Source: Caenimonas sp. | GTDB taxonomy: Bacteria > Pseudomonadota > Gammaproteobacteria > Burkholderiales > Burkholderiaceae_C | DNA: 64,000 nucleotides | Reading direction: 5' to 3' | NCBI GenBank assembly: GCA_040376925.1 | Contig: JBEIPU010000003.1 | Coordinates: 1,798-65,797 of the forward strand | Shown: in pieces, positions 8,163 through 30,661 of the stretch | How positions within the stretch are numbered: position 1 is the first letter of the stretch | Layout of the letters: every line of letters begins with the position of its first letter | Translations under genes and position numbers: made by a program | The notes under the pieces: generated by a model | Told to the model about the DNA's origin: nothing | Seen by the model: only the letters and a program-made list of their open reading frames with translations | Databases searched by the model: none

Positions 8163-8189
8163 AAAAAAAAGGCCCGGAAACTCCGGGCC
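8163..8189 (-). terminator. rho-independent terminator of rpoH
   Basis: On the minus strand GGCCCGG-AGTTT-CCGGGCC is followed by eight T. Lies 41 nt after the rpoH stop. Confidence 0.75.
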
Positions 8190-8229
8190 TGGGGCGCGAT
8201 ACCAAGGGTTACGTATCCACGCGGGGCTG

Positions 8230-9162
8230 TCAGGCGTAAGCCGCCAGTGCCTTTTTCATCTTCTTCATGGCGGCCACTTCGATCTGGCGGATGCGCTCGG
8301 CGCTCACGCCGTACTCGGCCGCCAGGTCGTGCAGCGTCAGGCCGCCCGAGCCGTCGTCATTGACCTTGAGCCAGCGCTCTTCCACGATACGGCGGCTGCG
8401 CGGGTCCAAGGCCTCCAGCGCGGTCGCAATGCCGTCGCTGGCCAGTACATCGCGCTGGCGCGATTCCATCATCTGCGTGGGCTCATGGCTGGCATCGGCC
8501 AGGTAGGCAATCGGGCCAAAGCCTTCTTCACCGTCGTCATTGGGCGCCGGGTCCAGCATCACGTCGCCGCCGGACATGCGCGTTTCCATCTCGATGACTT
8601 CCTCGCGCTTGACGTTCAGCTCCCTGGCCATCACGTCAATCTGGGCGTCGGTCAGCGTGTCGCGGTGGGTTTCCACGTCGGCGTCATCCTTGAAGCCCTG
8701 CTTCATGGAGCGCAGGTTGAAGAACAGCTTGCGCTGGGCCTTGGTCGTGGCGACCTTGACCATGCGCCAGTTCTTCAGGATGTACTCGTGGATTTCGGCC
8801 TTGATCCAGTGCAGGGCATAGCTCACCAGGCGCACGCCCTGGTCGGGGTCAAAGCGCTTGACGGCCTTCATCAGGCCGATGTTGCCTTCCTGGATGAGGT
8901 CGCCGTGGGGCAGGCCATAGCCCAGGTACTTGCGCGACACCGACACCACCAGACGCAGGTGCGACAGCACCAGCTTTCCGGCGGCCTCGAGGTCGTTGGT
9001 TTCCTTGAGTTTGCGCGCGAACGACTGCTCTTCTTCCAGCGTGAGCATGGGCAGGCGGTTGACGGCAGAGATGTACGCGTCCAGGTTGCCGAGCGAGGGC
9101 ACCACGGCCCAGGGGTTGGCAACGGTCAGCGCGGCGGTAGAGGCTCCAGTCAGGTTTGTCAT
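8230..9162 (-). CDS. rpoH: RNA polymerase sigma-32 factor RpoH
   Basis: ATG 9162 with AAGGAG 7 nt upstream. Sigma-70 regions 2-4 and the RpoH box QRKLFFNLRSMK. Confidence 0.9.
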   Translation of the reverse strand: MTNLTGASTAALTVANPWAVVPSLGNLDAYISAVNRLPMLTLEEEQSFARKLKETNDLEAAGKLVLSHLRLVVSVSRKYLGYGLPHGDLIQEGNIGLMKAVKRFDPDQGVRLVSYALHWIKAEIHEYILKNWRMVKVATTKAQRKLFFNLRSMKQGFKDDADVETHRDTLTDAQIDVMARELNVKREEVIEMETRMSGGDVMLDPAPNDDGEEGFGPIAYLADASHEPTQMMESRQRDVLASDGIATALEALDPRSRRIVEERWLKVNDDGSGGLTLHDLAAEYGVSAERIRQIEVAAMKKMKKALAAYA

Positions 9163-9188
9163 ACCAGAACTCCTTTCAAGTCCCAAAT

Positions 9189-9217
9189 ATTAGCACTCCT
9201 ATGGATCGAGTGCTAAT
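9189..9217 (-). promoter_or_regulatory. 10-bp perfect inverted repeat in the rpoH leader/promoter region
   Basis: ATTAGCACTC-N9-GAGTGCTAAT, ending 13 nt upstream of the rpoH SD, inside an AT-rich 143-bp spacer. Confidence 0.4.
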
Positions 9218-9305
9218 TGCAGAGTTCAATCCAATGGATAGCGAAGTTCTTAAGGGTAAGCCCGCATTCTTAGCCGACTGTGAGTGGCATGTGAATTTTT
9301 GTAAG

Positions 9306-10016
9306 TTAGCGCATGCTATCTTTTTGTTGCTGCTGCAGCCGGCGGACCACCCAGCGCGAAACCAGCGGCACCAGGGCCAGCAGCGCCAGCGCGCCCAGCA
9401 CGCCCGGGCTGACCAGGCCCTGCAGGGAATCCAGCCGGGCCAGCTCGCGCCCCGCGTTCACATAGGCGGCCGTGCCGGGCAGCATGCCGGCAAAGCTGGT
9501 CCAGGCAAAGGTGGATGCGCGCATGGGCACCACACCGGCCATCAGGTTGACCGGCACAAACGGGATCACCGGCAGCAGCCGCAGCGACAACATATAGAAC
9601 GCGCCGTCGCGCGCCAGCGCATCGGCGAACGCGGCGGTGCGCCCGCCCAGGCTGCGCTGCACCAGCGGGCGCAGCAGGTGGCGCGCGGTCAGCATGGTCA
9701 GCAATGCGCCGGTGGTGGACGCCAGCGTGGCCAGCAGGCTGCCGCCGACCAGCCCGAAAGTGGCGCCCGCCAGCAGCATCAGCACCGCCGCGCCCGGCAG
9801 GCAGGCGGCGGTCAGCAGGGTGAACACCGCAAAGTAGCCCAGCACCACCGCCAGCGGTGCGCGGGTGTAGGCCTGGGCAAACCCGGTCTGCGCCGCACGC
9901 ACATCTTCCATGCGCAGGTACTGCCAGGGCATCCATGCCCAGCACAGCAGGCAGATGGCGGCCAGCGCCAGCAGCAGCGCCACCGCAGGCCAGCGCGATG
10001 CGCGCGCGGGCGTCAT
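9306..10016 (-). CDS. TVP38/TMEM64 (DedA superfamily, SNARE-associated) membrane protein
   Basis: Polytopic protein with DGAFYMLSLRLLPVIPFVPVNLMAGV core. ATGA overlap with the patatin stop. Clear paralog of residues 1-230 of the 24191..26353 product. Confidence 0.8.
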   Translation of the reverse strand: MTPARASRWPAVALLLALAAICLLCWAWMPWQYLRMEDVRAAQTGFAQAYTRAPLAVVLGYFAVFTLLTAACLPGAAVLMLLAGATFGLVGGSLLATLASTTGALLTMLTARHLLRPLVQRSLGGRTAAFADALARDGAFYMLSLRLLPVIPFVPVNLMAGVVPMRASTFAWTSFAGMLPGTAAYVNAGRELARLDSLQGLVSPGVLGALALLALVPLVSRWVVRRLQQQQKDSMR

Positions 10017-10924
10017 GGCGCAGCCCCGGCGTGCTGCGCCAGCAGCTGTGCACGCCGCGCCATGGTGTGCTGGTAGCCCTGCGCCATCGCCATTTCACGC
10101 CAGGCCCGGCGCATGCCGGCGTAGTAGCCGATGTCCGGGTGCAGCACCAGGTCGGCGCTGCGGGCGTCGGGCAGGGTCAACGCGCGCTTGCGCAAGTCGG
10201 CTTCGCGCCAGCGTTCGGTGCCGGGCGGGGCCTTGTCTTCGTGGGCAGATACATCCACCGCCAGCACGCGCCGCGCGCCCAGGCTGCGTGCCAGGCGCGC
10301 CGGCAGGGGCAGGGCCAGGTCGGCGTCCAGGTAGCGCTGGCCCAGGATCGTCACCGGCTCAAACCGGCCCTCGATCGAGCAGGCCGCCTGGATGGCCACA
10401 CCGGCGCGGCCATGGGTGAAGGCAACGGGCTGGCGGGTGACCTCGTGCAGGGCCACGGCGGCAAATGCGGTGTTCAGCTGCTCCAGCCGGCGCTGGCCCG
10501 CCAGGTCGTCAAACCAGCGCACCAGGCCCGACGCGTTCAGCCAGGCATCACCGGCCACCTGCGGGCGCACCACGTCCATCACATCCACGTCCAGTGCCAG
10601 CTGCTCGATGCGCTGCATCGGCAGCCCCGCGGCATACAGGCCGCCCACCAGTGCGCCGACCGACGAGCCCACGACCAGCGCAGGCTTCAGGCCCAGCTCA
10701 TGCAGCGCCTTGAGCACACCCACATGGGCAAAGCCGCGCGGCCCACCCGAGCTGAGCACCCAGGCCACACCCGGCGGCACGGCCAGCGGGCCGAAGCGGG
10801 GTGCGTCGGGTCCATCATGGGCGCCGCCGCAGCCGGTCAAGCCGGTGGCGGCCACTGAAACAACCGCGCTCACGCCCGCGCCCAGCACCCATCGGCGTGG
10901 CAGGTGGGGTGGCGCTATTTGCAT
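10013..10924 (-). CDS. patatin-like phospholipase, predicted Tat/lipoprotein
   Basis: GGPRG oxyanion motif, GSSVG nucleophile elbow, RRWVLG plus LTGC lipobox. Starts 9 nt after the selD stop. Confidence 0.85.
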   Translation of the reverse strand: MQIAPPHLPRRWVLGAGVSAVVSVAATGLTGCGGAHDGPDAPRFGPLAVPPGVAWVLSSGGPRGFAHVGVLKALHELGLKPALVVGSSVGALVGGLYAAGLPMQRIEQLALDVDVMDVVRPQVAGDAWLNASGLVRWFDDLAGQRRLEQLNTAFAAVALHEVTRQPVAFTHGRAGVAIQAACSIEGRFEPVTILGQRYLDADLALPLPARLARSLGARRVLAVDVSAHEDKAPPGTERWREADLRKRALTLPDARSADLVLHPDIGYYAGMRRAWREMAMAQGYQHTMARRAQLLAQHAGAAP

Positions 10925-10933
10925 GGCCAGCCC

Positions 10934-13225
10934 TCAGGCCACCAGTGTGATGGGCTCCAGCGCATCGCCGCTGGCCAGGATGCGGCCGATCACGGCCGTG
11001 TGTTCGTAGCCCGCCTGGCGCAGCGCGGCCACGCAGTGCTGCACGCGGTCCGCCGGCACGCTGGCCAGCAGGCCGCCCGCGGTTTGCGGGTCAAACAGCA
11101 GCGCGTAGCGCGGGTGGTTCACAAAATCGGCCTGGTTGCGCAAGGCCCGGCGCAGCCGCACATTGGCCGGCGCCAATGAGCTGGTGATGCCCGCGGCCAC
11201 GCATTCCTCTGCGCCGTCCATGATCGGCAGCGCGTGCAGCCAGAGCTCGGCGTCCACGCCCGACGGTTTGGTCATCTCCACCAGGTGGCCCAGCAGGCCA
11301 AAGCCCGTCAGGTCGGTGCAGGCGGTGGCGCCGTGCGCCAGCAGCAGCTGCGCGCCGCGCTGGTTGGACACCACCATGGACTGCAGCGCGGCATCTATCC
11401 AGCGCCCGCGCGCGGCGCCGCGCGCATGGGCCGCAAACAGCGTGCCGGTGCCCATGGGTTTGGTCAGGATGAGCGCGTCGCCGGGTTTCAGGCCGCCCTT
11501 GCGCAGCACGGTGCGCAGGTCGTCGTCCACCAGGCCGTTGATCGCAAAGCCCAGGGCCAACTCCTTGCCCTCACCGGTGTGGCCGCCCACCAGCGCGCAG
11601 TTGGCGGCGTTCAGCACCTCCATGGCGCCGGTCATCATCTGGAACAGCAGGTCTTCGACCTTGGACTCCAGCCCCGGCGGCACTGTGACCACAGCGGTGG
11701 CCGATTGCGGCTCGCCGCCCATGGCAAACACGTCGCCCAGCGCATGGTTGGCCGCGACCTTGCCAAACAGGTAGGGGTCGTCAATGAACGCACGAAAGAA
11801 GTCCACGGTATGCACCATGGCCTTGCCCGGTGGCACGCGTACCACGGCCGCGTCGTCCGGCGCGTGCAGGCCGATCACCACGTCGTCGCGGTCCACCGGG
11901 TGCAGCGCGCCAAGGGCCCGCTGCAGCACCGTGGCGCCCACCTTGGCGCCGCAGCCGCCGCAGCGCATCGCAATGGCCGAGATCGCCTGCTGCGACTCAT
12001 CGGCCGTCAGCGCCAGCTGCGGGGCAGCAGGCGCGCTGCGCTGTGCGTCCATGGGCGGGAATTCGCTGAAGCGCTGCATGAAGCGGCGGTCGATCCAGTC
12101 CTTCCAGCGCCAGACCCATTTACCGCCAAAGCGCAGGCCCAGCGGCCCCTGGCCGCGTGAGGCCACGGCATAACGGTCGCCGGTGCTGATCAGGGCCAGC
12201 CAGTGGCGCTGCGGGCGGTAGGGGCGCAGGGGCTCGCCGCGCGCACTGCGGCGCAGGTTGTCGGCCAGCGGCGCGCCCATGCGCACGGCAAACACGCCGG
12301 CCTTTTCCAGCGCTCGCGGCTCGAATGCCGCCACATCGCCCGCACAGAAGATGCGCGCATCGTTCACGCTTTGCAGCTGGGCATTGACGCGCACAAAACC
12401 GTTGTCGTCCAGCGCCAGCCCGGTGCTGCGCAGCCACGCGGGGCCGCCGGCCTGCGTGACCCACATGATTTCGTCGGCAGCCAGCTTCTGGCCGTCCATG
12501 GTGGCAAGCTTGCCGGCGGTGACTTCGCGCACCTCGGCGCCGGTGTGTACCTGCACGCCGCGCTGGGCCAGCACCCGCGCAAAGCGCGCGCGCACGCCGG
12601 CGTTGTGCGTGGGCATGATGTGCGCGTCGCGCGTGAACAGGTGAAACACCAGCTCGTCCGGGTTGCGCCCGAGCGCCTGCAGCTCGCGTCGCAGCCGGTA
12701 CTGCATCGCCAGCGTCAGTTCCACGCCGCCCGCGCCGCCGCCCACCACGGCGATGGTGGTGGTGCCCGCATGGGAGCGCGCCCGCTCCAGCAGCGCCAGC
12801 CAGCGCTGGTTGAACTGGTGGATGGGTTTGACCGGCACGGCGTGCTCGGCCGCGCCCGGCACCCGCGCGACCTGCGGCGTGGAGCCGGTGTTGATGGCGC
12901 ACAGGTCGTACGGCACCGGCGGGCGGTTTCGGCACAGCACCTTGCCCGCTGCGAGGTCAATGCCAACCACTTCGTCACGGTAAAAGCGCGCACCGGCAAA
13001 CACCGCCAGGCGCCCGAGGTCGATGTGCACATCGTCGTAGCCATAGTGGCCGGCGATGTAGCCCGGCAGCATGCCTGAATAGGGCGTGTGGGCGTCGGTG
13101 CAGATCAGCGTGAGGCGCACGCCGGGCTCGGGGTTCATGCCAAATCGGCGCAGCACACCCACATGGCTGTGGCCACCGCCAATCAGCACAATGTCGCGCA
13201 GCACGGGTTGGTCGGTCAATTGCAT
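10934..13225 (-). CDS. selD: bifunctional pyridine nucleotide-disulfide oxidoreductase / selenide,water dikinase (SelD; SenC role)
   Basis: N-terminal IVLIGGGHSHVG and IAVVGGGAGGVE Rossmann motifs. C-terminal SelD domain from AMRCGGCGAKVG (Cys-type active site). ATG 13225 overlaps the senB stop by 1 nt. Confidence 0.85.
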   Translation of the reverse strand: MQLTDQPVLRDIVLIGGGHSHVGVLRRFGMNPEPGVRLTLICTDAHTPYSGMLPGYIAGHYGYDDVHIDLGRLAVFAGARFYRDEVVGIDLAAGKVLCRNRPPVPYDLCAINTGSTPQVARVPGAAEHAVPVKPIHQFNQRWLALLERARSHAGTTTIAVVGGGAGGVELTLAMQYRLRRELQALGRNPDELVFHLFTRDAHIMPTHNAGVRARFARVLAQRGVQVHTGAEVREVTAGKLATMDGQKLAADEIMWVTQAGGPAWLRSTGLALDDNGFVRVNAQLQSVNDARIFCAGDVAAFEPRALEKAGVFAVRMGAPLADNLRRSARGEPLRPYRPQRHWLALISTGDRYAVASRGQGPLGLRFGGKWVWRWKDWIDRRFMQRFSEFPPMDAQRSAPAAPQLALTADESQQAISAIAMRCGGCGAKVGATVLQRALGALHPVDRDDVVIGLHAPDDAAVVRVPPGKAMVHTVDFFRAFIDDPYLFGKVAANHALGDVFAMGGEPQSATAVVTVPPGLESKVEDLLFQMMTGAMEVLNAANCALVGGHTGEGKELALGFAINGLVDDDLRTVLRKGGLKPGDALILTKPMGTGTLFAAHARGAARGRWIDAALQSMVVSNQRGAQLLLAHGATACTDLTGFGLLGHLVEMTKPSGVDAELWLHALPIMDGAEECVAAGITSSLAPANVRLRRALRNQADFVNHPRYALLFDPQTAGGLLASVPADRVQHCVAALRQAGYEHTAVIGRILASGDALEPITLVA

Positions 13226-14211
13226 CAGGGCTTCCAGAGTTGGTCGACCAGGCGGCACAGCGCGGCCTGCTCGTTACCGGGTTCAAACAGGGGTGCGCGC
13301 CGCGCGCACTGCGCGGTCAGCCGCGCCATCAGGTCGCGCGGACCGGGGTGCGCAAGGCCTGCATGGCAGCGCAGCAGCAGGGCCGCCAGGCCGGCGGCGT
13401 CGCCGGGCTCAAAGTAGCCCGCGTAGCCCGTGCCCAGCATGCCGGTGTTGCCGTCAATGCGCGAGGCCAGCACCGGCGTGCCACAGCGCACGGCCTCCAT
13501 CACCACATGGGCGCCGCCTTCCATGCGGCTGGCATGCACCAGCAGGTGGGCGCGCTGGATGCGCCGGCGCGTGGCCTCATGCGCCAGCGCGCCCAGCCAG
13601 CGGTAGCCATGGCATTCGCGCATGGTGCTGCGCGCGGCGCGGCCCAGCGCCGCGTCCAGCGGCGCGCCGATGTGATCTATGCGGATGCCGGGCTCGTTGC
13701 GCAGCAGACGCGCGGCGGCCATCAGCGTCAGCGGGTCTTTCTCGTCACGCAGGTGGCCCACCATCACGGCACGCAGGTGGCGGTGTGTTTTGGGCAGGGT
13801 GGCGCGCTGTGACGTGGACTGGTAGATGACGCGGGCCTTGGCGCGCAGCGCTGCCGGCAGGGCTCGCGGCGCCTGGTCCTGCAGCACCACCAGGCGCTGC
13901 GCGGCGTCCACGCACGCGCGCGCCGCCGGGCTGCTTTCAATGTCGCGGTATAGGTCGGTGCCGGTCAGCACCACCGCCAGGCCGCGCGTGCCGCGCGCCT
14001 GCACCCAGGCCTGCACGGCCGGGGCGGACTTGCGCGCATGCAGGGCCAGCATCACGTCGTCGGCCTCCGCCGCAGCGTCGGGCCAGTCGCGCACGATGCG
14101 GGCAGAATGGCAGGCTCCGAGCATGCGTTGCCAGCGCCGCGCGGTCTGCCAGTTGCCGTTGTTGGCATCCGCCAGCGCGGGGCTCACGATCACGACGTTC
14201 GCTCGGTTCAT
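13225..14211 (-). CDS. senB: selenoneine-pathway selenosugar synthase-like glycosyltransferase (SenB-like)
   Basis: ATG 14211 (track start 14526 is a GC artefact). N-terminus VVIVSPALADANNGNWQTARRW and GT-B-like C-terminal half. Translationally coupled to selD. Confidence 0.7.
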   Translation of the reverse strand: MNRANVVIVSPALADANNGNWQTARRWQRMLGACHSARIVRDWPDAAAEADDVMLALHARKSAPAVQAWVQARGTRGLAVVLTGTDLYRDIESSPAARACVDAAQRLVVLQDQAPRALPAALRAKARVIYQSTSQRATLPKTHRHLRAVMVGHLRDEKDPLTLMAAARLLRNEPGIRIDHIGAPLDAALGRAARSTMRECHGYRWLGALAHEATRRRIQRAHLLVHASRMEGGAHVVMEAVRCGTPVLASRIDGNTGMLGTGYAGYFEPGDAAGLAALLLRCHAGLAHPGPRDLMARLTAQCARRAPLFEPGNEQAALCRLVDQLWKP

Positions 14212-14225
14212 GAAAGGGTTATAGC

Positions 14226-15401
14226 TTGATTGCCAGCGCCACACACCCGGCTGCCCGCGATGCCCGCACGGCCGGCGCCGCCGCGCTGGCGCAGGCCCTG
14301 CGCGCCACGCGCGAACGCACGCTGGGCCTGCTGGCGGCCTGGCAGCAGGCGCTTCCCGGCCTGCGCGTGCCGTATGCGGGCGAGCTGAACCCCCCGCTTT
14401 GGGAGCTGGGCCATGTGGGCTGGTTCCAGGAATGGTGGATTGCCCGCAACCGCGAACGCGCGCTGGGTGTGGCCTGCAACCCCGGCCATGCGCGGCCTGC
14501 CTCGCACCTGCCGGGCGCTGACGCACTGTTCAATTCCAGCGAGGTGCCACACCTCACGCGCTGGGATCTGCCCCTGCCGGGCGTGGACGCCCTGGTGCGC
14601 TACCTGGCGCAGGTACAGGCCGACACGCTGGCGCTGCTGCAGGAGGCCGGTGGCGGTGCGGAGCCCGGCGACGACGCCCTGTATTTCTGGCGGCTGGTGC
14701 TGTTTCATGAGCAGATGCACAACGAAGCGTCGGTGTACATGGCGCAGGCGCTGGGCGTGGCCATCCCCGAAGCACTGGCCCGCGGCCATGCAGCGGGCGC
14801 CAGCCGCAGCGGCGACCTGCATGTGCCCGCGCAGACGGTGCAAACAGGCCACACCGGCGCCGGCTTTGCGTTTGACAATGAACTGGCCGCGCACGCGGCA
14901 GACCTGCCCGCCTTCCAGATCGACGCCGCACCCGTGACCTGGGCGCGCTACCTGCCGTTCACCGAGGCCACTGGCCATGCCTTGCCGCCGCATGTGCGTT
15001 TGCAGGACGGGCAATGGCAGCAGCGGCACTTTGGGCGCTGGCTGCCGCTGGACCTGAACGCCCCGGCCGTGCACCTGAGCTGGCACGACGCCCAGGCCTG
15101 GTGCCAGTGGGCTGGCCGGCGCCTGCCGACCGAGGCGCAGTGGGAATGCGCCGCGCGTGTCCACGGGCACGCGATGGTCTGGGGCGAGGTGTGGGAATGG
15201 ACGGCCAGCGCGTTCGAGCCCTACCCTGGCTTTGTGGCCCATCCGTACCGCGACTATTCGCAGCCGTGGTTTGGCCACAGCCGGCGCGTGCTGCGCGGCG
15301 GCTGCGCCGCCACCGACGCGCAGATGCTGCATGTGGCGTACCGCAACTACTTCACGCCCGAGCGGCGCGACATCTTTGCCGGATTTCGCTCCATAGCCTG
15401 A
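14226..15401 (+). CDS. senA: EgtB-like sulfoxide/selenoxide synthase (SenA candidate)
   Basis: DinB-like N-terminal half (PPLWELGHVGWFQEWW, FHEQMHNE) and FGE-sulfatase-like C-terminal half (GEVWEWTAS, RVLRGG). TTG start only 14 nt from the senB ATG. Confidence 0.7.
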   Translation: MIASATHPAARDARTAGAAALAQALRATRERTLGLLAAWQQALPGLRVPYAGELNPPLWELGHVGWFQEWWIARNRERALGVACNPGHARPASHLPGADALFNSSEVPHLTRWDLPLPGVDALVRYLAQVQADTLALLQEAGGGAEPGDDALYFWRLVLFHEQMHNEASVYMAQALGVAIPEALARGHAAGASRSGDLHVPAQTVQTGHTGAGFAFDNELAAHAADLPAFQIDAAPVTWARYLPFTEATGHALPPHVRLQDGQWQQRHFGRWLPLDLNAPAVHLSWHDAQAWCQWAGRRLPTEAQWECAARVHGHAMVWGEVWEWTASAFEPYPGFVAHPYRDYSQPWFGHSRRVLRGGCAATDAQMLHVAYRNYFTPERRDIFAGFRSIA

Positions 15402-15412
15402 AAAACGGTGTT

Positions 15413-16381
15413 TCAGCATGCCGCCCAGAACACCGCAAAACGCGCATCGGCATCCGTCCAGTGCCGGTGCGACGCAAAGCCTGCGCCGTGCAGCAGCTGC
15501 GCAAAACGCGGCACCGTCCATTTGTACGAGTTTTCGGTGTGGATGCGCTCGCCCGCGGCAAACGTACGTTCGCCACCGGGCCAGCGCACGGTAGCGGGGC
15601 GCACAGCCTGCAGGTGCATCTCGATGCGGGCCAGCGCCTCGTCATACAGCGCCACGTGGCGCCAGTCGGCCAGGGCAAAGTCGGTGCCCGCCAGCCGGTT
15701 GATGTGCGGCAGCAGGTTGCGGTTGAAGGCGGCCGTCACGCCCAGGGCGTCGTCATAGGCGGCCTCCAGCTCGGCCTTGGCCTTGACCAGGTCCACCCCG
15801 ATCAGCAGCCCGCTGCCCGCCACCGGCCCACAGGCGCCCCGCACGCTGCGCAGGAATGCCAGCGCCTCATCGGGTGTGAAATTGCCGATGCTGGAGCCGG
15901 GGTAGAACAGCACGCGCGGCCCGTCGCCGGGCGCACCGGCCTCGGGCGGCAGCGTGAGCCCGGCGGAAAAATCCAGCCCCAGACCCACCATGTCCAGGTC
16001 AGGGTACTGGCGCTGCAGGCATTCCAGCGCATTGCGCAAAAAATCGACCGAAATATCCACCGCCACATAGCGGGCCGGCGCCAGGCGGCCAAACAGGCGC
16101 GCAGCCTTGTTGCAGTTGCCCGCGCCCAGGTCGACCAGCGTGGCGCCCTGGGGCACCTGCGCGGCCACGGCGGCGCCATGGGTGTCAAAAATCGCCGCTT
16201 CGGTGCGCGTGGGGTAGTACTCGGGCAGCTCGGTGATGGCCTCGAACAGGCGCGAACCCAGCGCGTCGTAAAGGTACTTGGGCGAGGTATGGGCCTGCGG
16301 CGCGCGCAGGCCCTGCAGCAGCTCGGCGCGCACGGCGTCGCGGTTGTCGTGGTGAAGCTGGACGAACAGGGGAGTTTTCAT
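15413..16381 (-). CDS. egtD: L-histidine N-alpha-methyltransferase (hercynine synthase EgtD)
   Basis: PKYLYDALGSRLFEAITELPEYYPTRTE, LVDLGAGNCNKA SAM motif and C-terminal ENSYKW are typical of EgtD. Confidence 0.85.
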   Translation of the reverse strand: MKTPLFVQLHHDNRDAVRAELLQGLRAPQAHTSPKYLYDALGSRLFEAITELPEYYPTRTEAAIFDTHGAAVAAQVPQGATLVDLGAGNCNKAARLFGRLAPARYVAVDISVDFLRNALECLQRQYPDLDMVGLGLDFSAGLTLPPEAGAPGDGPRVLFYPGSSIGNFTPDEALAFLRSVRGACGPVAGSGLLIGVDLVKAKAELEAAYDDALGVTAAFNRNLLPHINRLAGTDFALADWRHVALYDEALARIEMHLQAVRPATVRWPGGERTFAAGERIHTENSYKWTVPRFAQLLHGAGFASHRHWTDADARFAVFWAAC

Positions 16382-16448
16382 GGGGCGTGCGCGGGGGTGG
16401 TGGCAGATGGTAGCCGTGCGCTGTCGTTTTGATACGGCCAGACCTTAC

Positions 16449-16508
16449 ACCCGGATTCAAGGGGTTTGCAGCAGGACGGGGGCATTGATTTCGCGCTTTA
16501 ATCCGGGT
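16449..16508 (+). promoter_or_regulatory. 9-bp inverted repeat with 42-nt spacer in the egtD / ABC-transporter divergent spacer
   Basis: ACCCGGATT (16449-16457) and AATCCGGGT (16500-16508). Ends 35 nt before the transporter ATG. Confidence 0.3.
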
Positions 16509-16543
16509 TTGCCCTTTCACCCCACCTGTTCCAGGAGCCCGAC

Positions 16544-17410
16544 ATGATCAGCTTTTCACCGTCCCGAACCTTCAAGGTCATGATGACCTGCGCCGTGATT
16601 TGCTTTGGCGGGTTATCGCACGCGCAGCAGGTCTTTCGCGTCACCACCATCCCCGAAGAAGCCGCCACCGAGCAGGTGCGCAAGTTCACGCCGCTGGCCA
16701 GCTACCTGGAAAAGCAGCTGGGCGTGAAGGTGGAGTTCACGCCGGTCAGCGATTACCCCGCCGCGGTCGAAGCGCTGGTGAACAAGAAGGTGGACCTGGT
16801 GTGGTTCGGCGGCTTCACCTTCGTGCAGGCCAACCTGCGCTCGGGCGGCAAGGTCGTGCCCATCGCCCAGCGCGAGGAAGACACCAAATTCCAGTCGGTT
16901 TTCATTGCCAAGACCGACTCGGGCATCAAGACCCTGAACGACATGAAGGGCAAGCAGGTTTCATTCGGCTCGCAAAGCAGCACCTCGGGCCACCTGATGC
17001 CGCGCAGCTTCCTGCTGCAGGCCAGCATCAACCCGGAAAAGGATTTCAGGCGCATCGCCTACAGCGGCGCGCATGACGCCACCATTGCCTCGGTGGTCAG
17101 CGGCAAGGTGGACGCCGCCGCGCTGGACATCACGGTGTGGCGCAAGTTCGTGGGCGAGAACAAGGTGGACACCAAGGCCGTGGACGTGTTCTACACCACG
17201 CCGGGCTACTTCAACTACAACTGGTCGGTGCATGCCGACATGCCGGCCGACATGCAGGCCAAGGTCAAGGCCGCGCTGCTGGCGCTGAACCCCGCGGACG
17301 CCGCGCAGGGCGAGATCCTCAAGCTCAACCGCGCGACGCGCTACATCGCCACCACGCCCGACAACTACAAGGGCCTGGAAGCCGCCGCGCGCAGCGCCGG
17401 CCTGCTGTAA
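16544..17410 (+). CDS. PhnD-like periplasmic binding protein (putative selenate ABC transporter SBP)
   Basis: AGGAG SD and signal peptide. PhnD-fold motifs DLVWFGGFTFVQA and FGSQSSTSGHLMP. Context next to selD/sen genes. Confidence 0.75.
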   Translation: MISFSPSRTFKVMMTCAVICFGGLSHAQQVFRVTTIPEEAATEQVRKFTPLASYLEKQLGVKVEFTPVSDYPAAVEALVNKKVDLVWFGGFTFVQANLRSGGKVVPIAQREEDTKFQSVFIAKTDSGIKTLNDMKGKQVSFGSQSSTSGHLMPRSFLLQASINPEKDFRRIAYSGAHDATIASVVSGKVDAAALDITVWRKFVGENKVDTKAVDVFYTTPGYFNYNWSVHADMPADMQAKVKAALLALNPADAAQGEILKLNRATRYIATTPDNYKGLEAAARSAGLL

Positions 17411-17434
17411 GGCACACACGTAAGGCATACACCC

Positions 17435-18268
17435 TTGCGCATCGAGCTTCAAGGCGTCGCGGCCCGCCACCCGGCCGCGCGCGCCGGTGCCGCACCGGCG
17501 CTGCAGCCGCTGGACCTGGCCATTGCCGCTGGCGAACAGGTGGCCGTGATCGGCCCGTCAGGCGCGGGCAAGACCACACTGCTGCAGGTGCTGGCCTGCG
17601 CGCTCAGGCCTGGCGCCGGGCGCATGCAGCTGGATGCGCAGGACCCATGGCAGCTGCCCCGCAGCGAGCTGCAGCGCCTGCGCGGGCGGCTGTTCCTGGC
17701 GCCGCAGGTGCCGCCGCTGCCGCCACGCCAGCGTGTGGTCACGTCGGTGCTGGCCGGGCGGCTGCCCGCCATGGGCCTGCTGGCCAGCGTGCGCTCGCTG
17801 TTCTACCCCAGCGACATCCCGGCTGCCTACGAGGCGCTGGAGCGTTTTGACCTGTCAGACAAGCTGTTTGAGCGGGTGGACCGCCTGTCGGGCGGCGAAC
17901 GCCAGCGCGTGGGCCTGGCCCGTGCGCTGCTGGCGCCCGCCAGCCTGTGGCTGGTGGACGAGCCGCTGTCGGCGCTGGACCCGTCGCGCTCGCGCCAGGC
18001 GGTCGCCACGCTGGTGGACGGTGCGCGCGAGCGCGGCGCCACGCTGGTGGCCACGCTGCACCAGGTGGACGTGGCGCTGGCGAACTTCCCGCGCATCATC
18101 GGCCTGCGCGACGGCGCACTGGCGTTTGACCTGCGCGCGGGCGACGTGACGCGCGAGCGGCTGGCTGCGCTGTACGACCAGCACGAACACGAGCTGCGCG
18201 GTGATGCGCCGGTGGCACTGCCGGATGTCGACGCCGCGCCCCAGCCCGTGGTCATGCACTGCCGCTGA
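17435..18268 (+). CDS. PhnC-like ABC transporter ATP-binding protein
   Basis: Walker A GPSGAGKTT, signature LSGGERQRV, Walker B LWLVDEP. TTG start. Confidence 0.85.
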   Translation: MRIELQGVAARHPAARAGAAPALQPLDLAIAAGEQVAVIGPSGAGKTTLLQVLACALRPGAGRMQLDAQDPWQLPRSELQRLRGRLFLAPQVPPLPPRQRVVTSVLAGRLPAMGLLASVRSLFYPSDIPAAYEALERFDLSDKLFERVDRLSGGERQRVGLARALLAPASLWLVDEPLSALDPSRSRQAVATLVDGARERGATLVATLHQVDVALANFPRIIGLRDGALAFDLRAGDVTRERLAALYDQHEHELRGDAPVALPDVDAAPQPVVMHCR

Positions 18269-18275
18269 CCCCCGC

Positions 18276-19118
18276 ATGAATGCAACCACCGCCCCTTTGC
18301 GCCGCGCGCCGGACCGCGACCCGGCCTGGCTGTCGCGGCTCTTGCTGATCAGCGCGCTCGTGGTGGTGCTGTGGCCGCTGGGCGTGGCCACCGAATTCCG
18401 CCCCTGGGTGCTGCTGGAACCAGACAACCTCAAGATCAGCGCGCAGTTCATCGGCAGCTTCTGGCCGCTGGCCTTCAGCGGTGAATTCCTGGCCATGGTG
18501 GCGCGCGACACCTGGCGCACCGTGGCCATGGCCACCGCCGGCGTCACGCTGGCGCTGGTCATTGCCATACCGCTCACGCTGCTGTCCACGCGCGTGCTGT
18601 CGGTGTCGGCCCTGTCCGGGCGCATGGCGCGCGGGCCGTTCTGGCTGCGCCAGGCCATGCGGTGGCTGCTGATCGTGCTGCGCAGCATCCCCGAGCTGGT
18701 GTGGGCGCTGGTGTTTGTGCGTGTGGTGGGCCTGGGGCCCACGGCCGGCGTGCTGGCCATTGCGCTGACCTACGGCGGCATGCTGGGCAAGGTCTATGGC
18801 GAGATTCTGGAAAGCGGCGAACACCACGCCACCGAAACCCTGCTGCGCAACGGCTCGGGCCGCCTGCAGGCCTTCCTGTTCGGCCTGCTGCCCACCAACG
18901 CGGCGGAACTGACCAGCTACACCGTGTACCGCTGGGAATGCGCGATCCGCTCGTCGGTGGTGTTGGGCTTTGTGGGCGCGGGCGGCCTGGGCCAGCAGCT
19001 GGACAACTCCATGAAGATGTTCAATGGCGGTGAAGTGGCCAGCATGCTGCTGGTGTTCATTGCACTCGTCGCCCTGGCCGACCGCGTCAGCGCCTGGCTT
19101 AGAAAAGCGTTGGGATAG
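18276..19118 (+). CDS. PhnE-like ABC transporter permease 1
   Basis: ATG 18276, 7 nt after the ATPase stop. Polytopic, with LRSIPELVWALVF motif. Confidence 0.8.
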   Translation: MNATTAPLRRAPDRDPAWLSRLLLISALVVVLWPLGVATEFRPWVLLEPDNLKISAQFIGSFWPLAFSGEFLAMVARDTWRTVAMATAGVTLALVIAIPLTLLSTRVLSVSALSGRMARGPFWLRQAMRWLLIVLRSIPELVWALVFVRVVGLGPTAGVLAIALTYGGMLGKVYGEILESGEHHATETLLRNGSGRLQAFLFGLLPTNAAELTSYTVYRWECAIRSSVVLGFVGAGGLGQQLDNSMKMFNGGEVASMLLVFIALVALADRVSAWLRKALG

Positions 19119-19122
19119 ACCG

Positions 19123-19950
19123 ATGACCCCACCCCGCGCCGCCAACACGCCGTACAAGCTGCCGCCGCCGCTGTTTGATGCGCGCTGCCGTGCCTGCTGG
19201 TTCACGCTGGCAATCGTCGTGCTGGTGGTGGCGAGCTTCTGGTCACTCAACCTGCAGTGGAAGCAGTTTCTGTCGCTGGACGCCGCGCGCAGCATGGGCA
19301 AGTTCCTGGGCGAATTTTTCCCGCCCGACCTGTCGCCCGCGTTCGTGACCAAGGTGGCCATCGGCGCCTGGGAAACGTTGGCCATGTCGGCGCTGGGCAC
19401 GCTGCTGGCCGTGGCCGGCGGGCTGGCGCTGGCGCTGCCGGCCAGCCGGCTGCACCAGGGCGACGCCGCCCGCACGCGTGGCGCCACGCGGCTGGTGCTG
19501 AACGCGCTGCGCAGCATCCCCGAGCTGGTGTGGGCCGCGCTGCTGCTGATCTCGGCCGGCCTGGGCCCGTTTGCCGGCACGCTGGCGCTGGCGCTGCACA
19601 CCACCGGCGTGCTGGGCCGCCTGTTTGCCGAAGCCATCGAGAACGCGCCCGCGGGCCCCGGCGATGCGCTGCGCGCACAGGGCGTGGGCAATGGCCGCGT
19701 GTTCCTGTATGCCACCTTGCCGCAGGTGCTGCCGCAGCTCATGAGCTACACCCTGTACCGCTGGGAAAACAACATCCGCGCTGCCGCCGTGCTGGGCGTG
19801 GTGGGCGCGGGCGGTCTGGGCCAGCTGCTGGCCTTTCACATGGGCCTGTTCCAGATGGGCAAGACAGCCACCATCCTGGGCGCGATGCTGCTGATGGTGG
19901 TGCTGGTGGATGCATTGAGTTATGTCTGGCGTCGCGCACTCATGCGCTGA
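19123..19950 (+). CDS. PhnE-like ABC transporter permease 2
   Basis: ATG 19123, 4 nt after the permease 1 stop. Paralogous LRSIPELVWAALLL motif. Confidence 0.8.
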   Translation: MTPPRAANTPYKLPPPLFDARCRACWFTLAIVVLVVASFWSLNLQWKQFLSLDAARSMGKFLGEFFPPDLSPAFVTKVAIGAWETLAMSALGTLLAVAGGLALALPASRLHQGDAARTRGATRLVLNALRSIPELVWAALLLISAGLGPFAGTLALALHTTGVLGRLFAEAIENAPAGPGDALRAQGVGNGRVFLYATLPQVLPQLMSYTLYRWENNIRAAAVLGVVGAGGLGQLLAFHMGLFQMGKTATILGAMLLMVVLVDALSYVWRRALMR

Positions 19951-19960
19951 AAGGGTTCCC

Positions 19961-20623
19961 ATGCGTGCCTGGCTGATCCGAACTCTGATACTGGCCGGCG
20001 CCGCGCTGCTGTCGGCCTGCGGCACACCCTATGCCACCGTGCCTAACAAGGCAGGCGAGCCCGTGATGCTGCTGGGCCATGACCCGGTGGCGTACTTCAC
20101 CCAGGGCAAGCCGGTGCGCGGCACGCCGGCCAACAAGGTGAGCCTGCCTGAGCGCACCTATTACTTTGCCAGCGCCGAACACCAGCGCCTGTTCCAGGCC
20201 GACCCGGCCAGGTACGAGCCGCAGTACGGCGGCTTTTGCGCCAGCGGCGCGGCCTTTGCCATCAAGCTGGGCAGCGACCCCACGGCCTGGCAGATCTACA
20301 ACGGCCGCCTGTTCATCTTCGGCGACGCCTTGGGCCAGACCGCCTGGGCCGTGGACCCGGCCTGGAACGTGGGCCATGGCGACCGCCTGTGGCCGGGCAT
20401 ACAGGACAAGGGTTGGCGGGCTGCATCGCTTGCGGCCTACACCAGCAAGGTACCCCACTACAAAACCGGTGCACAGATCAAGGCCGAACACGAAGCCAAA
20501 AACCCCGGCCAACCCTGGCCTGCCTACAACCCGGGCGGCATGGTGACCAACCTGTTCTTGAAGCGGCCTGGCTGGCGTGCGGCTGAGGGGTTTGGGCAGC
20601 CTGCGGTGGGGTATCCGGAGTAA
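19961..20623 (+). CDS. YHS domain-containing lipoprotein (Cys form of the YHS (seleno)protein family)
   Basis: ATG 19961, 10 nt after the permease stop. Lipobox LLSAC. HDPVAYF and QYGGFCASG motifs (TGC codon). Confidence 0.7.
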   Translation: MRAWLIRTLILAGAALLSACGTPYATVPNKAGEPVMLLGHDPVAYFTQGKPVRGTPANKVSLPERTYYFASAEHQRLFQADPARYEPQYGGFCASGAAFAIKLGSDPTAWQIYNGRLFIFGDALGQTAWAVDPAWNVGHGDRLWPGIQDKGWRAASLAAYTSKVPHYKTGAQIKAEHEAKNPGQPWPAYNPGGMVTNLFLKRPGWRAAEGFGQPAVGYPE

Positions 20624-20674
20624 TTTTCTCCGGCTGACAGCGCCCGTCCCGCCGGGCGCCTCAGCCGGAGAAAA
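20624..20674. terminator. 51-nt compound palindrome filling the spacer between the convergent YHS genes
   Basis: Perfect 14-bp arms TTTTCTCCGGCTGA / TCAGCCGGAGAAAA enclosing a 7-bp inner stem GCGCCCG/CGGGCGC. There is no free U-tail on either strand. Confidence 0.55.
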
Positions 20675-20676
20675 GA

Positions 20677-21273
20677 TTACTTCCGAGCCTTCGCATCCGC
20701 AACCATCTTCGCCAGCTCTTCACCGCTTTTGTAATGCGGCACGCGCAGCACCATGCGCTTGCTGCGCTGGATGAAGCTGTTGCTGCCGCTGACTTCTTCC
20801 TTCCAGTACTTGTCGGCCATCGCAACGTTGGCTTTCTCGTCGAGCAGGAAGGCGTCCATGGAGCCGCGCCCGCCGAAGATGTACAGCTTGCCGTCCACCA
20901 TCTTCCAGGTGTCTGCGTCGCCGCCCCAGGGGATGCCGTAGACGATGCCGTTGGCGCAATAGCCGCCGTACTGGGGCAGGTACTTGGCGGGCTCCTTGTC
21001 AAACAGCGCCTTGTGTTCGGCGCTGGCAAAGCGGAAGTCCACGCCCTGGTAGCTGCTGCGGTATTGCGGGCTGCCCTGGGCGAACTTGCCCTGGGTGAAG
21101 TAGGCCACCACGTCGGCGCCCTTGAGCATCAGGCGGCCTTCGGGGTTGTCGGCCACGGCGTTCACGGGCTTGAGCGTGCCCGAGGGGTTTTGCGCGGTGA
21201 TGGCGCCGCAGCCGGCCAGGGCGGCCACCAGGATGGCAGCGCCGCCGGTGCGCAGCAGGACAGAAGAGGTCAT
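20677..21273 (-). CDS. YHS domain-containing lipoprotein, paralog 2
   Basis: Lipobox LAGC. ADVVAYF and QYGGYCANG motifs (TGC codon). ATG overlaps the ATP-grasp stop (ATGA). Confidence 0.7.
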   Translation of the reverse strand: MTSSVLLRTGGAAILVAALAGCGAITAQNPSGTLKPVNAVADNPEGRLMLKGADVVAYFTQGKFAQGSPQYRSSYQGVDFRFASAEHKALFDKEPAKYLPQYGGYCANGIVYGIPWGGDADTWKMVDGKLYIFGGRGSMDAFLLDEKANVAMADKYWKEEVSGSNSFIQRSKRMVLRVPHYKSGEELAKMVADAKARK

Positions 21274-22664
21274 GGGAAAGTCTCCGGGGTTGTAGGTTCA
21301 GTGTGACGTGGAGTGTGAGCCCTGCCGGGGCCCGGCAGTTCCCGCCCCGGTGCGTGGGCATGCAGGTCGGCATACGGCGGCGTCCAGCCCAGCAACGAGC
21401 TGGCCACCTCGCAGCGCCGGCGCAGGTCGGCCGCGTCGGCACCGCCCAGGTGCACGATGCCGTAGCGGTGGCTGCCCAGCCATTTGAAGTCGCGCGCCAC
21501 CGAGCCCGCGGTTTTGGGGAACTCCAGCAACAGCGCGTCGGGGTAGGCCTCGTGGAACACCTGGCGCTGCAAGGCCGTGGGTACCGGCGGCGCGCGCCAC
21601 GGGTCGAACAGCCGGTACACAAAGCTCGCCGCAGCGCCTGCCGTGGGCGTGCGGCGCGGCACAGCCGCCGGGTCCTGCCCGTGGGCCAGCGCAAACGCCA
21701 TGTCGTGCAGGTTGATGCCGTCCACGCGCTGGTACAGGTCCGAGAACTGCGACGCCAGGCGCGGGTTGAACTCAATCACCGTGACGCGGCCGGTGGCCGG
21801 GTCATGGAAAAACTCCATGTTGAACATGCCGTGGGTGAAGCCCACCTCGGCCAGGAAACGGCGCGCGACGTCGGCCGCGCGCGCCACCACATCCGCGGGC
21901 AGGCGGGTGGGGTAGTCAAACCGCATGAACGATTCCGTGCCCGGGTACATCTGGATGTCCACACACCCCAGCAGGTGCATCTGGCCGCCCTGCACATAGC
22001 CGTCCAGGCAGTACTGCGGCGCGTCCACCACGGCTTCGGTCATCAGGCTGTGGGCCGTGCCGGCCTCGGGCAGGCGCTTGGCCACGACGCGTTCAAACGG
22101 CTCGACCAGGTGGCGGATGACCCACAGCTCCCAGGCACCAAAACGGGTGTGGGCATGAAGTTCGTCGTGGCTCTTCACGGTGCGCGCCAGCACCGAAAAG
22201 GCCGCCTTCACCGGCTTGACGAACAGCGGGTAGGCCAGGCCCTGTGGCACCGGGCCGCCGTATTTCGCATCAAGCCGTGCAAACGGCGGGTTGGCGTCGG
22301 GGCAGATGCGCTGCAGCACCTCGCGCGCGTACAGCTTGTGCTGGCAGGCCAGCACGGCCTTGACCGGCGTGCCGGGCCAGCCCATGCGCTCGGCCAGCAG
22401 CGCGGCGGCCAGCGCGCCAAACTGCTCGTGGTTGGACACCACGGCCTTCAGGCCCATGCGCCGGGCGCGGCGCGCCCACAGCGCCACAAAGCGGTCCATG
22501 TCAAACCAGGCCAGCCGTGCGTTGCTGGGAAAGCTGAACAGGTCAAAGCCTGCGCTGATGTGCGGCCAGCGCTGCGCCAGCCGGGCAAATTCGCGCTGGT
22601 CCCAGTCGTAGTTGAACAGGACCAGCGTGGCGGGGTGGTGGGAGTGCATGGGGGGCTTACGCAT
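21270..22664 (-). CDS. ATP-grasp domain protein
   Basis: ATG 22664 (1-nt overlap with the upstream stop) or ATG 22649. ATP-grasp core YPLFVKPVKAAFS ... VIEFNPRLASQF. Confidence 0.7.
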   Translation of the reverse strand: MRKPPMHSHHPATLVLFNYDWDQREFARLAQRWPHISAGFDLFSFPSNARLAWFDMDRFVALWARRARRMGLKAVVSNHEQFGALAAALLAERMGWPGTPVKAVLACQHKLYAREVLQRICPDANPPFARLDAKYGGPVPQGLAYPLFVKPVKAAFSVLARTVKSHDELHAHTRFGAWELWVIRHLVEPFERVVAKRLPEAGTAHSLMTEAVVDAPQYCLDGYVQGGQMHLLGCVDIQMYPGTESFMRFDYPTRLPADVVARAADVARRFLAEVGFTHGMFNMEFFHDPATGRVTVIEFNPRLASQFSDLYQRVDGINLHDMAFALAHGQDPAAVPRRTPTAGAAASFVYRLFDPWRAPPVPTALQRQVFHEAYPDALLLEFPKTAGSVARDFKWLGSHRYGIVHLGGADAADLRRRCEVASSLLGWTPPYADLHAHAPGRELPGPGRAHTPRHTEPTTPETFP

Positions 22665-23392
22665 CAGGGGGCGAGCTGGATGTCGGCGATCCAGGCCAGG
22701 CTGCGCGCGCCGGTGTTGTCGGCGTCGGCGCCTACCGCCACCGCCTGCAACGGGGGCAGGGTGGGGCTTTCGCTGCCGAACAGGCGGGCAAAGTCGGCCT
22801 GGAGGTTGCGCTGGTGGCTGCGCCACTGGCCGGTCGGGCTGGCGGCGCCGTCCAGCACCAGGTAGCGCACCCGGGCTGAATACGCATTGGGCAGCACGGT
22901 GCCCTGCGCCAGGGTCACGTCCCACACATAGCAGACGGTGGCAGCCGGCAGGGGCTCGCCCGACACGGCGCGTGCCAGGCGCAGCAGGCTGCGCTCCACG
23001 AACGGCACGCGGTCCAGCGGCATGTCAAACATCAGGCAGACCTTGAGCGCGGCGTCATCAGCGTCCTTGCGGCGCAGGTCGGCCCCTGCCACGGGCTGGT
23101 CCAGCCGCCAGCGCCAGCGCAGCGTGGCCTCGCGGCCGGCCAGCCAGCCGTTCAGGTCGTGCACCAGGCTGGCGTACGACGCGTCGGCACGCAGTCGCAG
23201 CGCGGGCGCGCCGTCCAGCGTGGCGATGTCCATGGCAGTGAGCGGCGCCTTGTTGTTTGGCAGGCCCACGGTGCGCCACGCTGCCGCTGCCAGCGGTGCC
23301 AGCAGCGGCCCATGCTGCGCGGGCTGGGCCAGCGCGCTAGCGGCCCAGATCGTTAAGAGACCAGTCGTAGTCCAGGTGCGTGATCGGAACAT
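22664..23392 (-). CDS. DUF3047 domain protein, secreted
   Basis: Signal peptide MFRSRTWTTTGLLTIWAASALAQP. DDAALKVCLMFD and CYVWD motifs recalled for DUF3047. Confidence 0.65.
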   Translation of the reverse strand: MFRSRTWTTTGLLTIWAASALAQPAQHGPLLAPLAAAAWRTVGLPNNKAPLTAMDIATLDGAPALRLRADASYASLVHDLNGWLAGREATLRWRWRLDQPVAGADLRRKDADDAALKVCLMFDMPLDRVPFVERSLLRLARAVSGEPLPAATVCYVWDVTLAQGTVLPNAYSARVRYLVLDGAASPTGQWRSHQRNLQADFARLFGSESPTLPPLQAVAVGADADNTGARSLAWIADIQLAP

Positions 23393-24155
23393 TGCGGGCC
23401 CTGATTTTCTCGCGGTCGGCCGGTGCGTCGGCCAATTGGTCGGCGTAGCGTGCCATCACGTCTTCCAGCTTGTTGAAACCCTTGTGGCCTTTTTCAAAGT
23501 CTTCGCGGAACCACTTGAAGATCATGTTGACCTGCAGCTTGCCGTCGGCATAGCGGTTGCGGGTGCGGTCGCCCATGAAGCGCAGCATGCCGTCGTCCAG
23601 CTGCGCGTCCAGCCTGGCCGCCACAAAGGCCTCGGGCCGCAGCGCCGGGCAGCCGATGCTGGCGCAGTTGACGGCGGCGTGCACGCGTGGCTCGCTGTAC
23701 CGGGGGCGCAGCTGCTCGTGCTCGATCCAGTCCAGGTGGCGCGGCTCGCCCAGCAGGGTGAAGAACTTGTTCTTCCACGGCGACTGCAGCAGCGAGCCCA
23801 GGTCCTTGATCGACTTGAGGCCGGGGTATTTGGTCAGGATCAGCTCCACGGTGAAGCCGTTGTAGGCGTTGATCAGGAACGCCATCTGCTGCTCGCGCGG
23901 CAGCGCGGCAAACTGCGCGGGCGTCACGGCCGACCATTCGGCCAGCACGGCCTTGAGCGCGGCGCGGTCGGCGGCAAAGCCCTTGTAGTCCACGCGCGAC
24001 TGCTTGTTGTCGGGCAGCCATTTCACATGCTTTTTGAGCAGGGCGTCCCAGGCGGCGTAGCCGGTGTCCAGCGCGGCGGCCGGGGCCCAGGCCGCGGGCG
24101 CGGCTGCAGCGAGCGCGCCGGTGGCGATGAGGTGCAGGGCGGTGCGGCGCTTCAT
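23337..24155 (-). CDS. DUF547 domain protein, secreted
   Basis: ATG 24155 gives signal peptide MKRRTALHLIATGALAAAAPAAWA. ATG 24194 would overlap the upstream stop (ATGA). FLINAYNGFT and HAAVNCASIGCPAL motifs. Confidence 0.7.
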   Translation of the reverse strand: MKRRTALHLIATGALAAAAPAAWAPAAALDTGYAAWDALLKKHVKWLPDNKQSRVDYKGFAADRAALKAVLAEWSAVTPAQFAALPREQQMAFLINAYNGFTVELILTKYPGLKSIKDLGSLLQSPWKNKFFTLLGEPRHLDWIEHEQLRPRYSEPRVHAAVNCASIGCPALRPEAFVAARLDAQLDDGMLRFMGDRTRNRYADGKLQVNMIFKWFREDFEKGHKGFNKLEDVMARYADQLADAPADREKIRARNVPITHLDYDWSLNDLGR

Positions 24156-24190
24156 GGTGTCGGCCTTGCGGAGTTGGAGTGGGTGGGCGT

Positions 24191-27471: not shown

Positions 27472-27500
27472 GGGCGGCAACCAGTGGGGTGGACCAACCG

Positions 27501-30647: not shown

Positions 30648-30661
30648 GGGCTCCATGGCCC

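Follow-up and report, generated by a model that had tools for sequence, protein, structure and literature searches.

The stretch analyzed here, called the window below, comprises 64,000 nucleotides (nt) of contig JBEIPU010000003.1 from Caenimonas sp.; between positions 10934 and 16381 it carries four long open reading frames (ORFs), whose codon bias is that of a ~70% G+C genome and which correspond to senC, senB, senA and egtD of the selenoneine (sen) pathway. On the minus strand, senB (13225-14211), encoding a 328-residue selenosugar synthase (Se-glycosyltransferase), is followed by senC (10934-13225; 763 residues), and the TGA of senB and the ATG of senC have one base in common (cccTGATGcaa), from which we infer translational coupling of SenB to SenC. 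On the plus strand lies senA (14226-15401; 391 residues, TTG start), encoding a predicted selenoneine synthase, that is, a non-haem-iron selenoxide synthase with the EgtB fold; a spacer of 14 nt (14212-14225) separates it from senB. The minus-strand egtD gene (15413-16381), encoding a 322-residue L-histidine N-alpha-trimethyltransferase of the type that makes hercynine, converges on senA with exactly 11 nt between the stop codons (15402-15412). The sequence-only reading of this DNA had described a SelD domain overlapped by 1 nt by an upstream glycosyltransferase-like protein of 328 residues, a divergent EgtB-fold enzyme and a convergent EgtD-type methyltransferase; all of these were borne out by the ORFs, the TGATG junction and the Pfam and NCBIfam matches (DinB_2 plus FGE-sulfatase for the senA product; Methyltransf_33 with an E-value of 6e-102 for that of egtD).

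The four proteins were scored against NCBI curated equivalog models, using the cut-offs of the models, and against Pfam. All four enzymes lie above the curated cut-offs: SenA with NF041186 (466.4 bits, cut-off 420), SenB with TIGR04348 (425.8 bits, cut-off 300), EgtD with TIGR03438 (362 bits, cut-off 290.9) and both halves of SenC with their respective models (see below). The E-values of these family matches range from 1e-108 to 1e-151 and thus exclude chance. An EgtB homologue, a TIGR04348 protein and selD are co-localized inside 4.5 kb (10934-15401), a layout that most of the 80 related loci described below have in common. Exact-sequence searches gave no record for the SenB and EgtD of the window. 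No second EgtB, SelD or sen paralogue was found in the window, and an Rfam scan of its whole length gave no riboswitch or other RNA family at threshold.

Calling the EgtB homologue SenA had been a matter of context in the sequence-only reading, and it is now upheld by the NF041186 score, by signature residues and by the nearest solved structures. The EgtB fold and the adjacent egtD could also belong to an ergothioneine (sulfur) locus, with ergothioneine as the product of the EgtB homologue and EgtD and with no functional tie to the neighbouring glycosyltransferase and SelD, and the EgtB model TIGR03440 still matches with an E-value of 1e-67. However, its score of 229 bits is far under the cut-off of 360, while the SenA model is passed; the profile comparison thus places the protein apart from sulfur-type EgtB, a point that the earlier reading had left to be checked. 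All SenA proteins keep the three-His triad and the catalytic Tyr of EgtB, while the thiol-binding pair Arg87/Asp416 is replaced by His and Phe/Tyr (bioRxiv 10.1101/2022.04.13.486033). The window protein shares with Mycolicibacterium thermoresistibile EgtB (4X8B) the DinB_2 plus FGE-sulfatase fold, the triad and the Tyr, but has H109 and F376 (H117 and F397 in the Variovorax paradoxus enzyme) at the positions of the Arg/Asp pair, as in all SenA. Moreover, no egtA, egtC or egtE was found in the window, and the coupling of senB to selD together with a divergent senA is kept across dozens of loci, which makes an ergothioneine locus extremely unlikely.

Of the residues named in the SenA structure paper (H71, H167, H171, Y363, N395, F397 and R401, with N63, E68 and R120 validated by mutagenesis), the iron triad and the catalytic Tyr correspond to H63, H161, H165 and Y341 of the window protein, the selenosugar pocket to N55, E60 and R112, the contact to the hercynine trimethylammonium group (N395) to N374, and R401 to R380. 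These signature residues, together with H109 and F376, are invariant or nearly so across 54 aligned sequences. The start of senA can only be the TTG at 14226, because an in-frame stop lies upstream at 14211-14213. The protein is ~17 residues shorter in one loop than V. paradoxus SenA; we considered whether this gap is a defect and rejected the idea, as about half of the orthologues share the short form and all catalytic residues are intact, so that on the alignment the short loop is best read as a natural variant and not as damage.

The nearest solved structures of SenA are those of the V. paradoxus enzyme (8K5I/8RYZ; E 1e-122, 413 bits), followed by OvsA as the second-best match in the PDB (E 1e-46, 163 bits) and by EgtB (E 4e-32). 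OvsA, of the ovoselenol pathway (8UX5, 8U41; PMC11030361), is like SenA an EgtB-fold selenoxide synthase using a selenosugar made by SenB and SenC, and the locus might accordingly be of the ovoselenol type, or belong to another selenometabolite, with the EgtB-fold enzyme acting on histidine or some other acceptor instead of hercynine. In favour of this, some SenB loci lack senA, and others have a co-directional paralogue 39-42% identical to SenA, or a second EgtB-like gene together with a methyltransferase. Against it stand the much stronger match to SenA than to OvsA and the SenA equivalog model, which is passed; the hercynine contact N374 is conserved, and a dedicated egtD, not a methyltransferase of the ovoselenol type, lies 11 nt away. 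We consider an acceptor other than hercynine very unlikely, and the enzyme is treated as SenA in what follows.

The membership of the glycosyltransferase in the SenB family, which the earlier reading had proposed to check by profile, is clear from its TIGR04348 score. The ORF product starts MNRANVVIVSPALADANNGNWQTARRW, and its closest solved structures are 8JJQ, 8FBX and 8K5U (E ~1e-118). It shares the GT-B fold family with the characterized SenB enzymes of V. paradoxus (8JJQ/8FBX/8RZ3), Ramlibacter sp. (RsSenB, 8K5U) and Comamonadaceae (CbSenB). The sugar-donor triad N20/T23/E231, K158, involved in Se-P cleavage, and the EGGAHV motif are all kept with the same numbering, and so is the selenophosphate pocket formed by H58, T83, T85 and R155.

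SenC is a fusion of an NADH-dehydrogenase-like FAD/NAD(P)H (flavin and nicotinamide adenine dinucleotide) flavoprotein (residues ~1-390, window 12056-13225) with a C-terminal selenophosphate synthetase, SelD (residues ~419-763, window 10934-11971), and matches Pyr_redox_2, AIRS and AIRS_C in Pfam. The N-terminal half scored 503 bits with TIGR03169, the 'Nterm_to_SelD' oxidoreductase (cut-off 310), and the C-terminal half 295 bits with the SelD model TIGR00476 (cut-off 125), while the whole protein reached 469 bits with TIGR04369, 'fusion_not_SelD', short of its cut-off of 700. Residues 419-430 read AMRCGGCGAKVG; C425 and K428, within RCGGCGAK, are the equivalents of Cys17 and Lys20 of Escherichia coli SelD, and the aligned aspartates (D458, D475, D498 and D638) are retained. 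Across 42 fused orthologues, Cys42, Cys98, Cys422 and Cys425 vary little or not at all. The N-terminal domain of ~390 residues has its nearest solved relatives in type-II NADH dehydrogenases, AIF and FSP1, and may help to produce or deliver selenide. Fusions of this type, with an N-terminal flavoprotein and a Cys-type SelD as in the window, are described as the commonest SelD fusions, with selenophosphate synthetase activity predicted to be retained (Zhang et al. 2008, PMC2432076; Mariotti et al. 2015, PMC4561486). The context in those surveys is selenocysteine and selenouridine, whereas in the window and in 38 of 64 related loci senB is coupled to such a fusion.

EgtD is a regular member of the family of M. 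smegmatis EgtD (4PIM), to which it aligns with an E-value of 2e-50. The positions corresponding to Y56, N166, Y206, M252, E282 and S284 of the M. smegmatis enzyme, which we take to be those of histidine recognition and substrate contact, are conserved. It is 48% identical to the EgtD used in the V. paradoxus study.

The window agrees with senABC of V. paradoxus DSM 30034 in its three enzyme families and in their catalytic residues, with identities of 56% for SenA and 61% for SenB, and senB and selD overlap in both; this overlap is the criterion by which the sen cluster was discovered (bioRxiv 10.1101/2022.04.13.486033). The two differ in the ~17-residue loop of SenA, present in V. paradoxus and missing here, and in SenC: the V. 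paradoxus protein employed in the reconstitution is a SelD standing alone at ~350 residues, a single-domain architecture that the 763-residue fusion of the window does not match.

To place this layout among relatives, SenB was used as query in a scan of one genome per species (185,579 species genomes), which returned 80 loci, all of them Burkholderiales-like, the best SenB match being 71% identical, so that the species of the window is absent from this set; related loci are cited below by number. Layout was counted only in loci with enough flank (77, 44 or 64, depending on the feature). A senA gene divergent from and adjacent to senB was found in 48 of 77 loci and a co-directional, adjacent one in none of the 77; egtD converges on senA within 300 nt in 24 of 44; senB is followed by a fused SenC in 38 and by a stand-alone SelD in 16 of the 64 loci. 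Thus the order egtD> <senA senB>senC> is not unusual, and the earlier view that the arrangement departs from the norm finds no support, as divergent senA with convergent egtD is the commonest layout among relatives and the modal architecture of the clade. Many related Betaproteobacteria of freshwater and soil have it. The closest locus overall, L010 from a Ramlibacter metagenome-assembled genome, has the same order YHS-transporter-egtD-senA-senB-senC-rpoH. A putative selenate transporter stands beside the sen genes in 40 of the 80 loci; co-localized egtD and selenate transporter genes had already been noted in a subset of sen clusters (bioRxiv 10.1101/2022.04.13.486033). The usual sen locus of this clade therefore exceeds the three genes of the textbook, including egtD, a putative selenate importer and YHS proteins as well, and most often has the flavoprotein-SelD fusion instead of a plain SelD.

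Some of the related loci deviate at the senA position. In L163 (Limnobacter parvus; 8171-19359) genes for DUF547, ATP-grasp and YHS proteins, the ABC importer, egtD, senB and a fused senC are present, no senA lies within 19 kb, and a divergent gene for a 397-residue methyltransferase occupies its place; L051 and L064 are also of the senA-less type. Such loci may follow a different selenometabolite route or may have senA elsewhere in the genome. L167 has, besides senA and egtD, a second, distant EgtB-fold gene (432 residues, DinB_2 plus FGE-sulfatase) with a small methyltransferase gene at 13548-15478, a pair that may give a second histidine-derived selenium or sulfur product; weak SenA-like matches (25-28%) occur in L017, L044, L066, L070, L074, L123, L126, L130 and L137. 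In L046, L065, L068 and L077 the sole EgtB-fold gene is co-directional with senB and encodes a protein 39-42% identical to the window SenA; in L077 it stands directly upstream of senB. These genes may represent a paralogue other than SenA, for instance OvsA.

From the family scores, the catalytic residues, the coupling of senB to senC and the conserved layout, we consider it very probable that the locus is a sen biosynthetic cluster of the V. paradoxus kind, with selenoneine as the predicted product. Several points weigh against this assignment. At ligand-contact positions SenB differs from the V. paradoxus enzyme by R22Q, R61K and V157E. Identity between the SelD half of SenC and the characterized stand-alone SenC is only 34%, and His494 of the window protein aligns with Asn87 of E. 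coli SelD; Asn493 is adjacent, and the motif holding both residues, AANHALGD, is invariant among the 42 fused orthologues. The literature yielded no biochemical test of a SenC of the fused type. Lastly, 'selenate' as substrate of the neighbouring transporter is a curated prediction, contained in the name of the model TIGR04553. The locus adds a further member to the known selenoneine clusters and an additional predicted producer of selenoneine to the Comamonadaceae-like Betaproteobacteria; its practical value is modest, and the residual interest lies in the flavoprotein-SelD form of SenC, in a putative leaderless promoter and in the recurrent uncharacterized neighbours described below.

The putative selenate importer, of the ATP-binding cassette (ABC) type, is encoded by four plus-strand genes (16544-19950) divergent from egtD, whose starts were taken from the gene calls on a short Logan contig, the one record with an identical substrate-binding protein. 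The substrate-binding protein (16544-17410) matches TIGR04553, 'putative selenate ABC transporter substrate-binding protein', at 357 bits (cut-off 250); it is followed by genes for a PhnC-like ATPase (17435-18268) and two PhnE-like permeases (18276-19118 and 19123-19950). The last gene of this operon (19961-20623, plus strand) encodes a lipoprotein with the lipobox LLSAC that matches NF041384, 'YHS domain-containing (seleno)protein', at 105 bits (cut-off 70). A second YHS lipoprotein is encoded farther on, and both are Cys forms from a family that includes selenoproteins.

A pathway can be proposed for the locus along the chemistry described by Kayrouz and Seyedsayamdost (bioRxiv 10.1101/2022.04.13.486033). 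The PhnCDE-like importer and the periplasmic YHS lipoproteins would take in a selenium oxyanion, which would be reduced to selenide, the flavoprotein half of SenC possibly contributing; the SelD half would then use ATP to make selenophosphate. SenB would transfer the sugar of a uridine diphosphate (UDP)-sugar onto selenophosphate and hydrolyse the Se-P bond to leave a 1-seleno-sugar, UDP-N-acetylglucosamine (UDP-GlcNAc) being the preferred donor of the characterized SenB. Histidine would be trimethylated by EgtD to hercynine, and SenA, depending on O2 and Fe(II), would join the selenosugar to hercynine C2 as a selenoxide, whose spontaneous elimination would give selenoneine.

The ATG of senB (14211) and the TTG of senA (14226) stand head to head, and in the spacer between them the minus strand carries a -10-like TATAAC (14223-14218) at a distance of exactly 6 nt from the senB ATG; a Shine-Dalgarno sequence is absent. 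In related loci the spacer has a median of ~20 nt, typically 4-35 nt, and 25 of 79 loci have a TATAAN box 5-8 nt ahead of the senB start, 23 of them at exactly 6 nt; the chance expectation for this placement, from the frequency of TATAA in the same loci, is ~0.02 matches. The spacing by itself, seen in loci that are not independent samples, suggests a leaderless mRNA for senB-senC and a senA promoter inside senB. A scan of 9000-17000 for sigma-70 promoter and terminator consensus sequences gave nothing near the sen genes and counts at the level of shuffled sequence; it required T at the last -10 position and was therefore blind to TATAAC. No inverted repeats were found in the egtD-transporter and senB-senA spacers, and a candidate sigma-54 site upstream of senB was rejected by eye for its wrong GG-GC spacing.

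Further genes flank the sen cluster on both sides. A patatin-like phospholipase gene (Pfam Patatin; 10013-10924, minus strand) starts 9 nt past the senC stop and overlaps by 4 nt with the gene of a small VTT/DedA-like membrane protein (VTT_dom; 9306-10016, minus strand); both are probably co-transcribed with senB-senC. This senC-patatin-VTT order recurs only in L002, and patatin and VTT homologues lie elsewhere in other sen loci. Beyond the transporter operon, five tightly packed minus-strand genes (20677-26353), assigned with Pfam and NCBIfam, encode in order a fusion of a VTT (DedA-like) domain with a flavoprotein disulfide reductase (24191-26353), a DUF547 protein (23337-24155), a DUF3047 protein (22664-23392), an ATP-grasp ligase (21270-22664; start set by a 97%-identical protein of 464 residues) and, last in the operon, the second YHS lipoprotein (20677-21273). 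The predicted model of the ATP-grasp protein, with a mean predicted local distance difference test (pLDDT) of 88, has a fold closest to L-amino-acid ligases (3VOT, YwfE/BacD, RizA; ~14% identity), which makes an amide-forming reaction plausible and gives no indication of the substrate; sequence searches against the PDB returned only a weak carbamoyl-phosphate synthetase match for this protein and nothing for DUF547.

The sen core and these accessory genes (ATP-grasp, YHS, DUF547, DUF3047, VTT-disulfide reductase, patatin and small VTT) could form one functional system, serving selenium uptake and reduction or converting selenoneine or hercynine to another product, for example an amide conjugate. 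They neighbour sen genes in three or more arrangements, and the close packing of patatin and VTT genes behind senC and the ligase-like fold of the ATP-grasp protein speak for such a system. In a reverse test, metagenome loci were found with the ATP-grasp protein as query; the 35 that were at least 8 kb long held YHS in 25 cases, SenA in 18, EgtD in 16, patatin in 15 and SenB in 14, the ATP-grasp gene often lying immediately upstream of egtD. On the other hand, nearly all loci are from Burkholderiales, so that inherited synteny inflates these counts, and in the long genomic contexts L162, L165 and L166 the VTT, ATP-grasp and YHS genes (in L165 also patatin, the VTT-disulfide reductase fusion and DUF547) have no sen gene nearer than 9-10 kb. 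Membrane-lipid biology is the better-known setting of the VTT/DedA and patatin families, a background that points to a role unrelated to selenium. A literature search found no paper tying the accessory families to selenoneine. We rejected as a firm claim that the module is sen-specific, given its occurrence without sen genes in those three loci. With the evidence mixed, a link of the accessory genes to sen is put forward as a doubtful hypothesis, and a single functional system of all these genes appears possible but rather improbable.

A wider proposal, which we regard as unlikely, would place the sen genes at the centre of an undescribed, larger island for selenium handling, ~17 kb long (9306-26353), in which the flavoprotein half of SenC would feed selenide directly to the SelD half, the accessory set would serve to take up and reduce selenium or to derivatize selenoneine or hercynine, and senB-senC would be leaderless with a promoter overlapping the senA start. 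The fused SenC and the accessory genes are in any case targets for studying the delivery of reduced selenium or the further processing of selenoneine.

The two VTT paralogues of the window, one free-standing (9306-10016) and one fused to a MerA/LpdA-like flavoprotein disulfide reductase (24191-26353), are 43.5% identical. In protein P0108 (710 residues, from a Logan contig) the small VTT protein and the ATP-grasp enzyme are fused in one polypeptide, and adjacent VTT and ATP-grasp genes are found in L106, L108, L109, L113, L115-L117, L119, L140-L142, L144, L153, L154, L162 and L166; the adjacency and the fusion argue that both act together. In L166 (6111-14302) this pair lies between the genes for the catalytic and the 4Fe-4S plus NrfD/DmsC subunits of a molybdopterin oxidoreductase, and the cluster adjoins a SulP-family anion transporter. 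L164, whose ATP-grasp protein is 97% identical to that of the window, has a GNAT-toxin/TacA-antitoxin pair (12300-13072) between two YHS genes, an insertion that the window does not have.

Upstream of the five-gene accessory operon the window encodes a DEP-domain protein (26350-27480, minus strand), a heavy-metal-type sensor histidine kinase (28405-30081, minus strand) and an extracytoplasmic function (ECF) sigma factor (30669-31337, plus strand), all of which might regulate the neighbourhood. The order is the same in L164 and L167, where a response regulator is also seen beside the kinase, at the place corresponding to 30081-30669 of the window. Farther on, ~16 kb from the sen genes, a plus-strand gene (32491-33801) encodes a 436-residue fusion of TIGR04283 (265 bits, cut-off 182) and TIGR04282 (198 bits, cut-off 134), both named 'arsenosugar biosynthesis glycosyltransferase' families. 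Ahead of it lie an APH-type kinase-like gene (31418-32494, plus strand) and the ECF sigma factor gene, and the same neighbours are found in L164 and L167.

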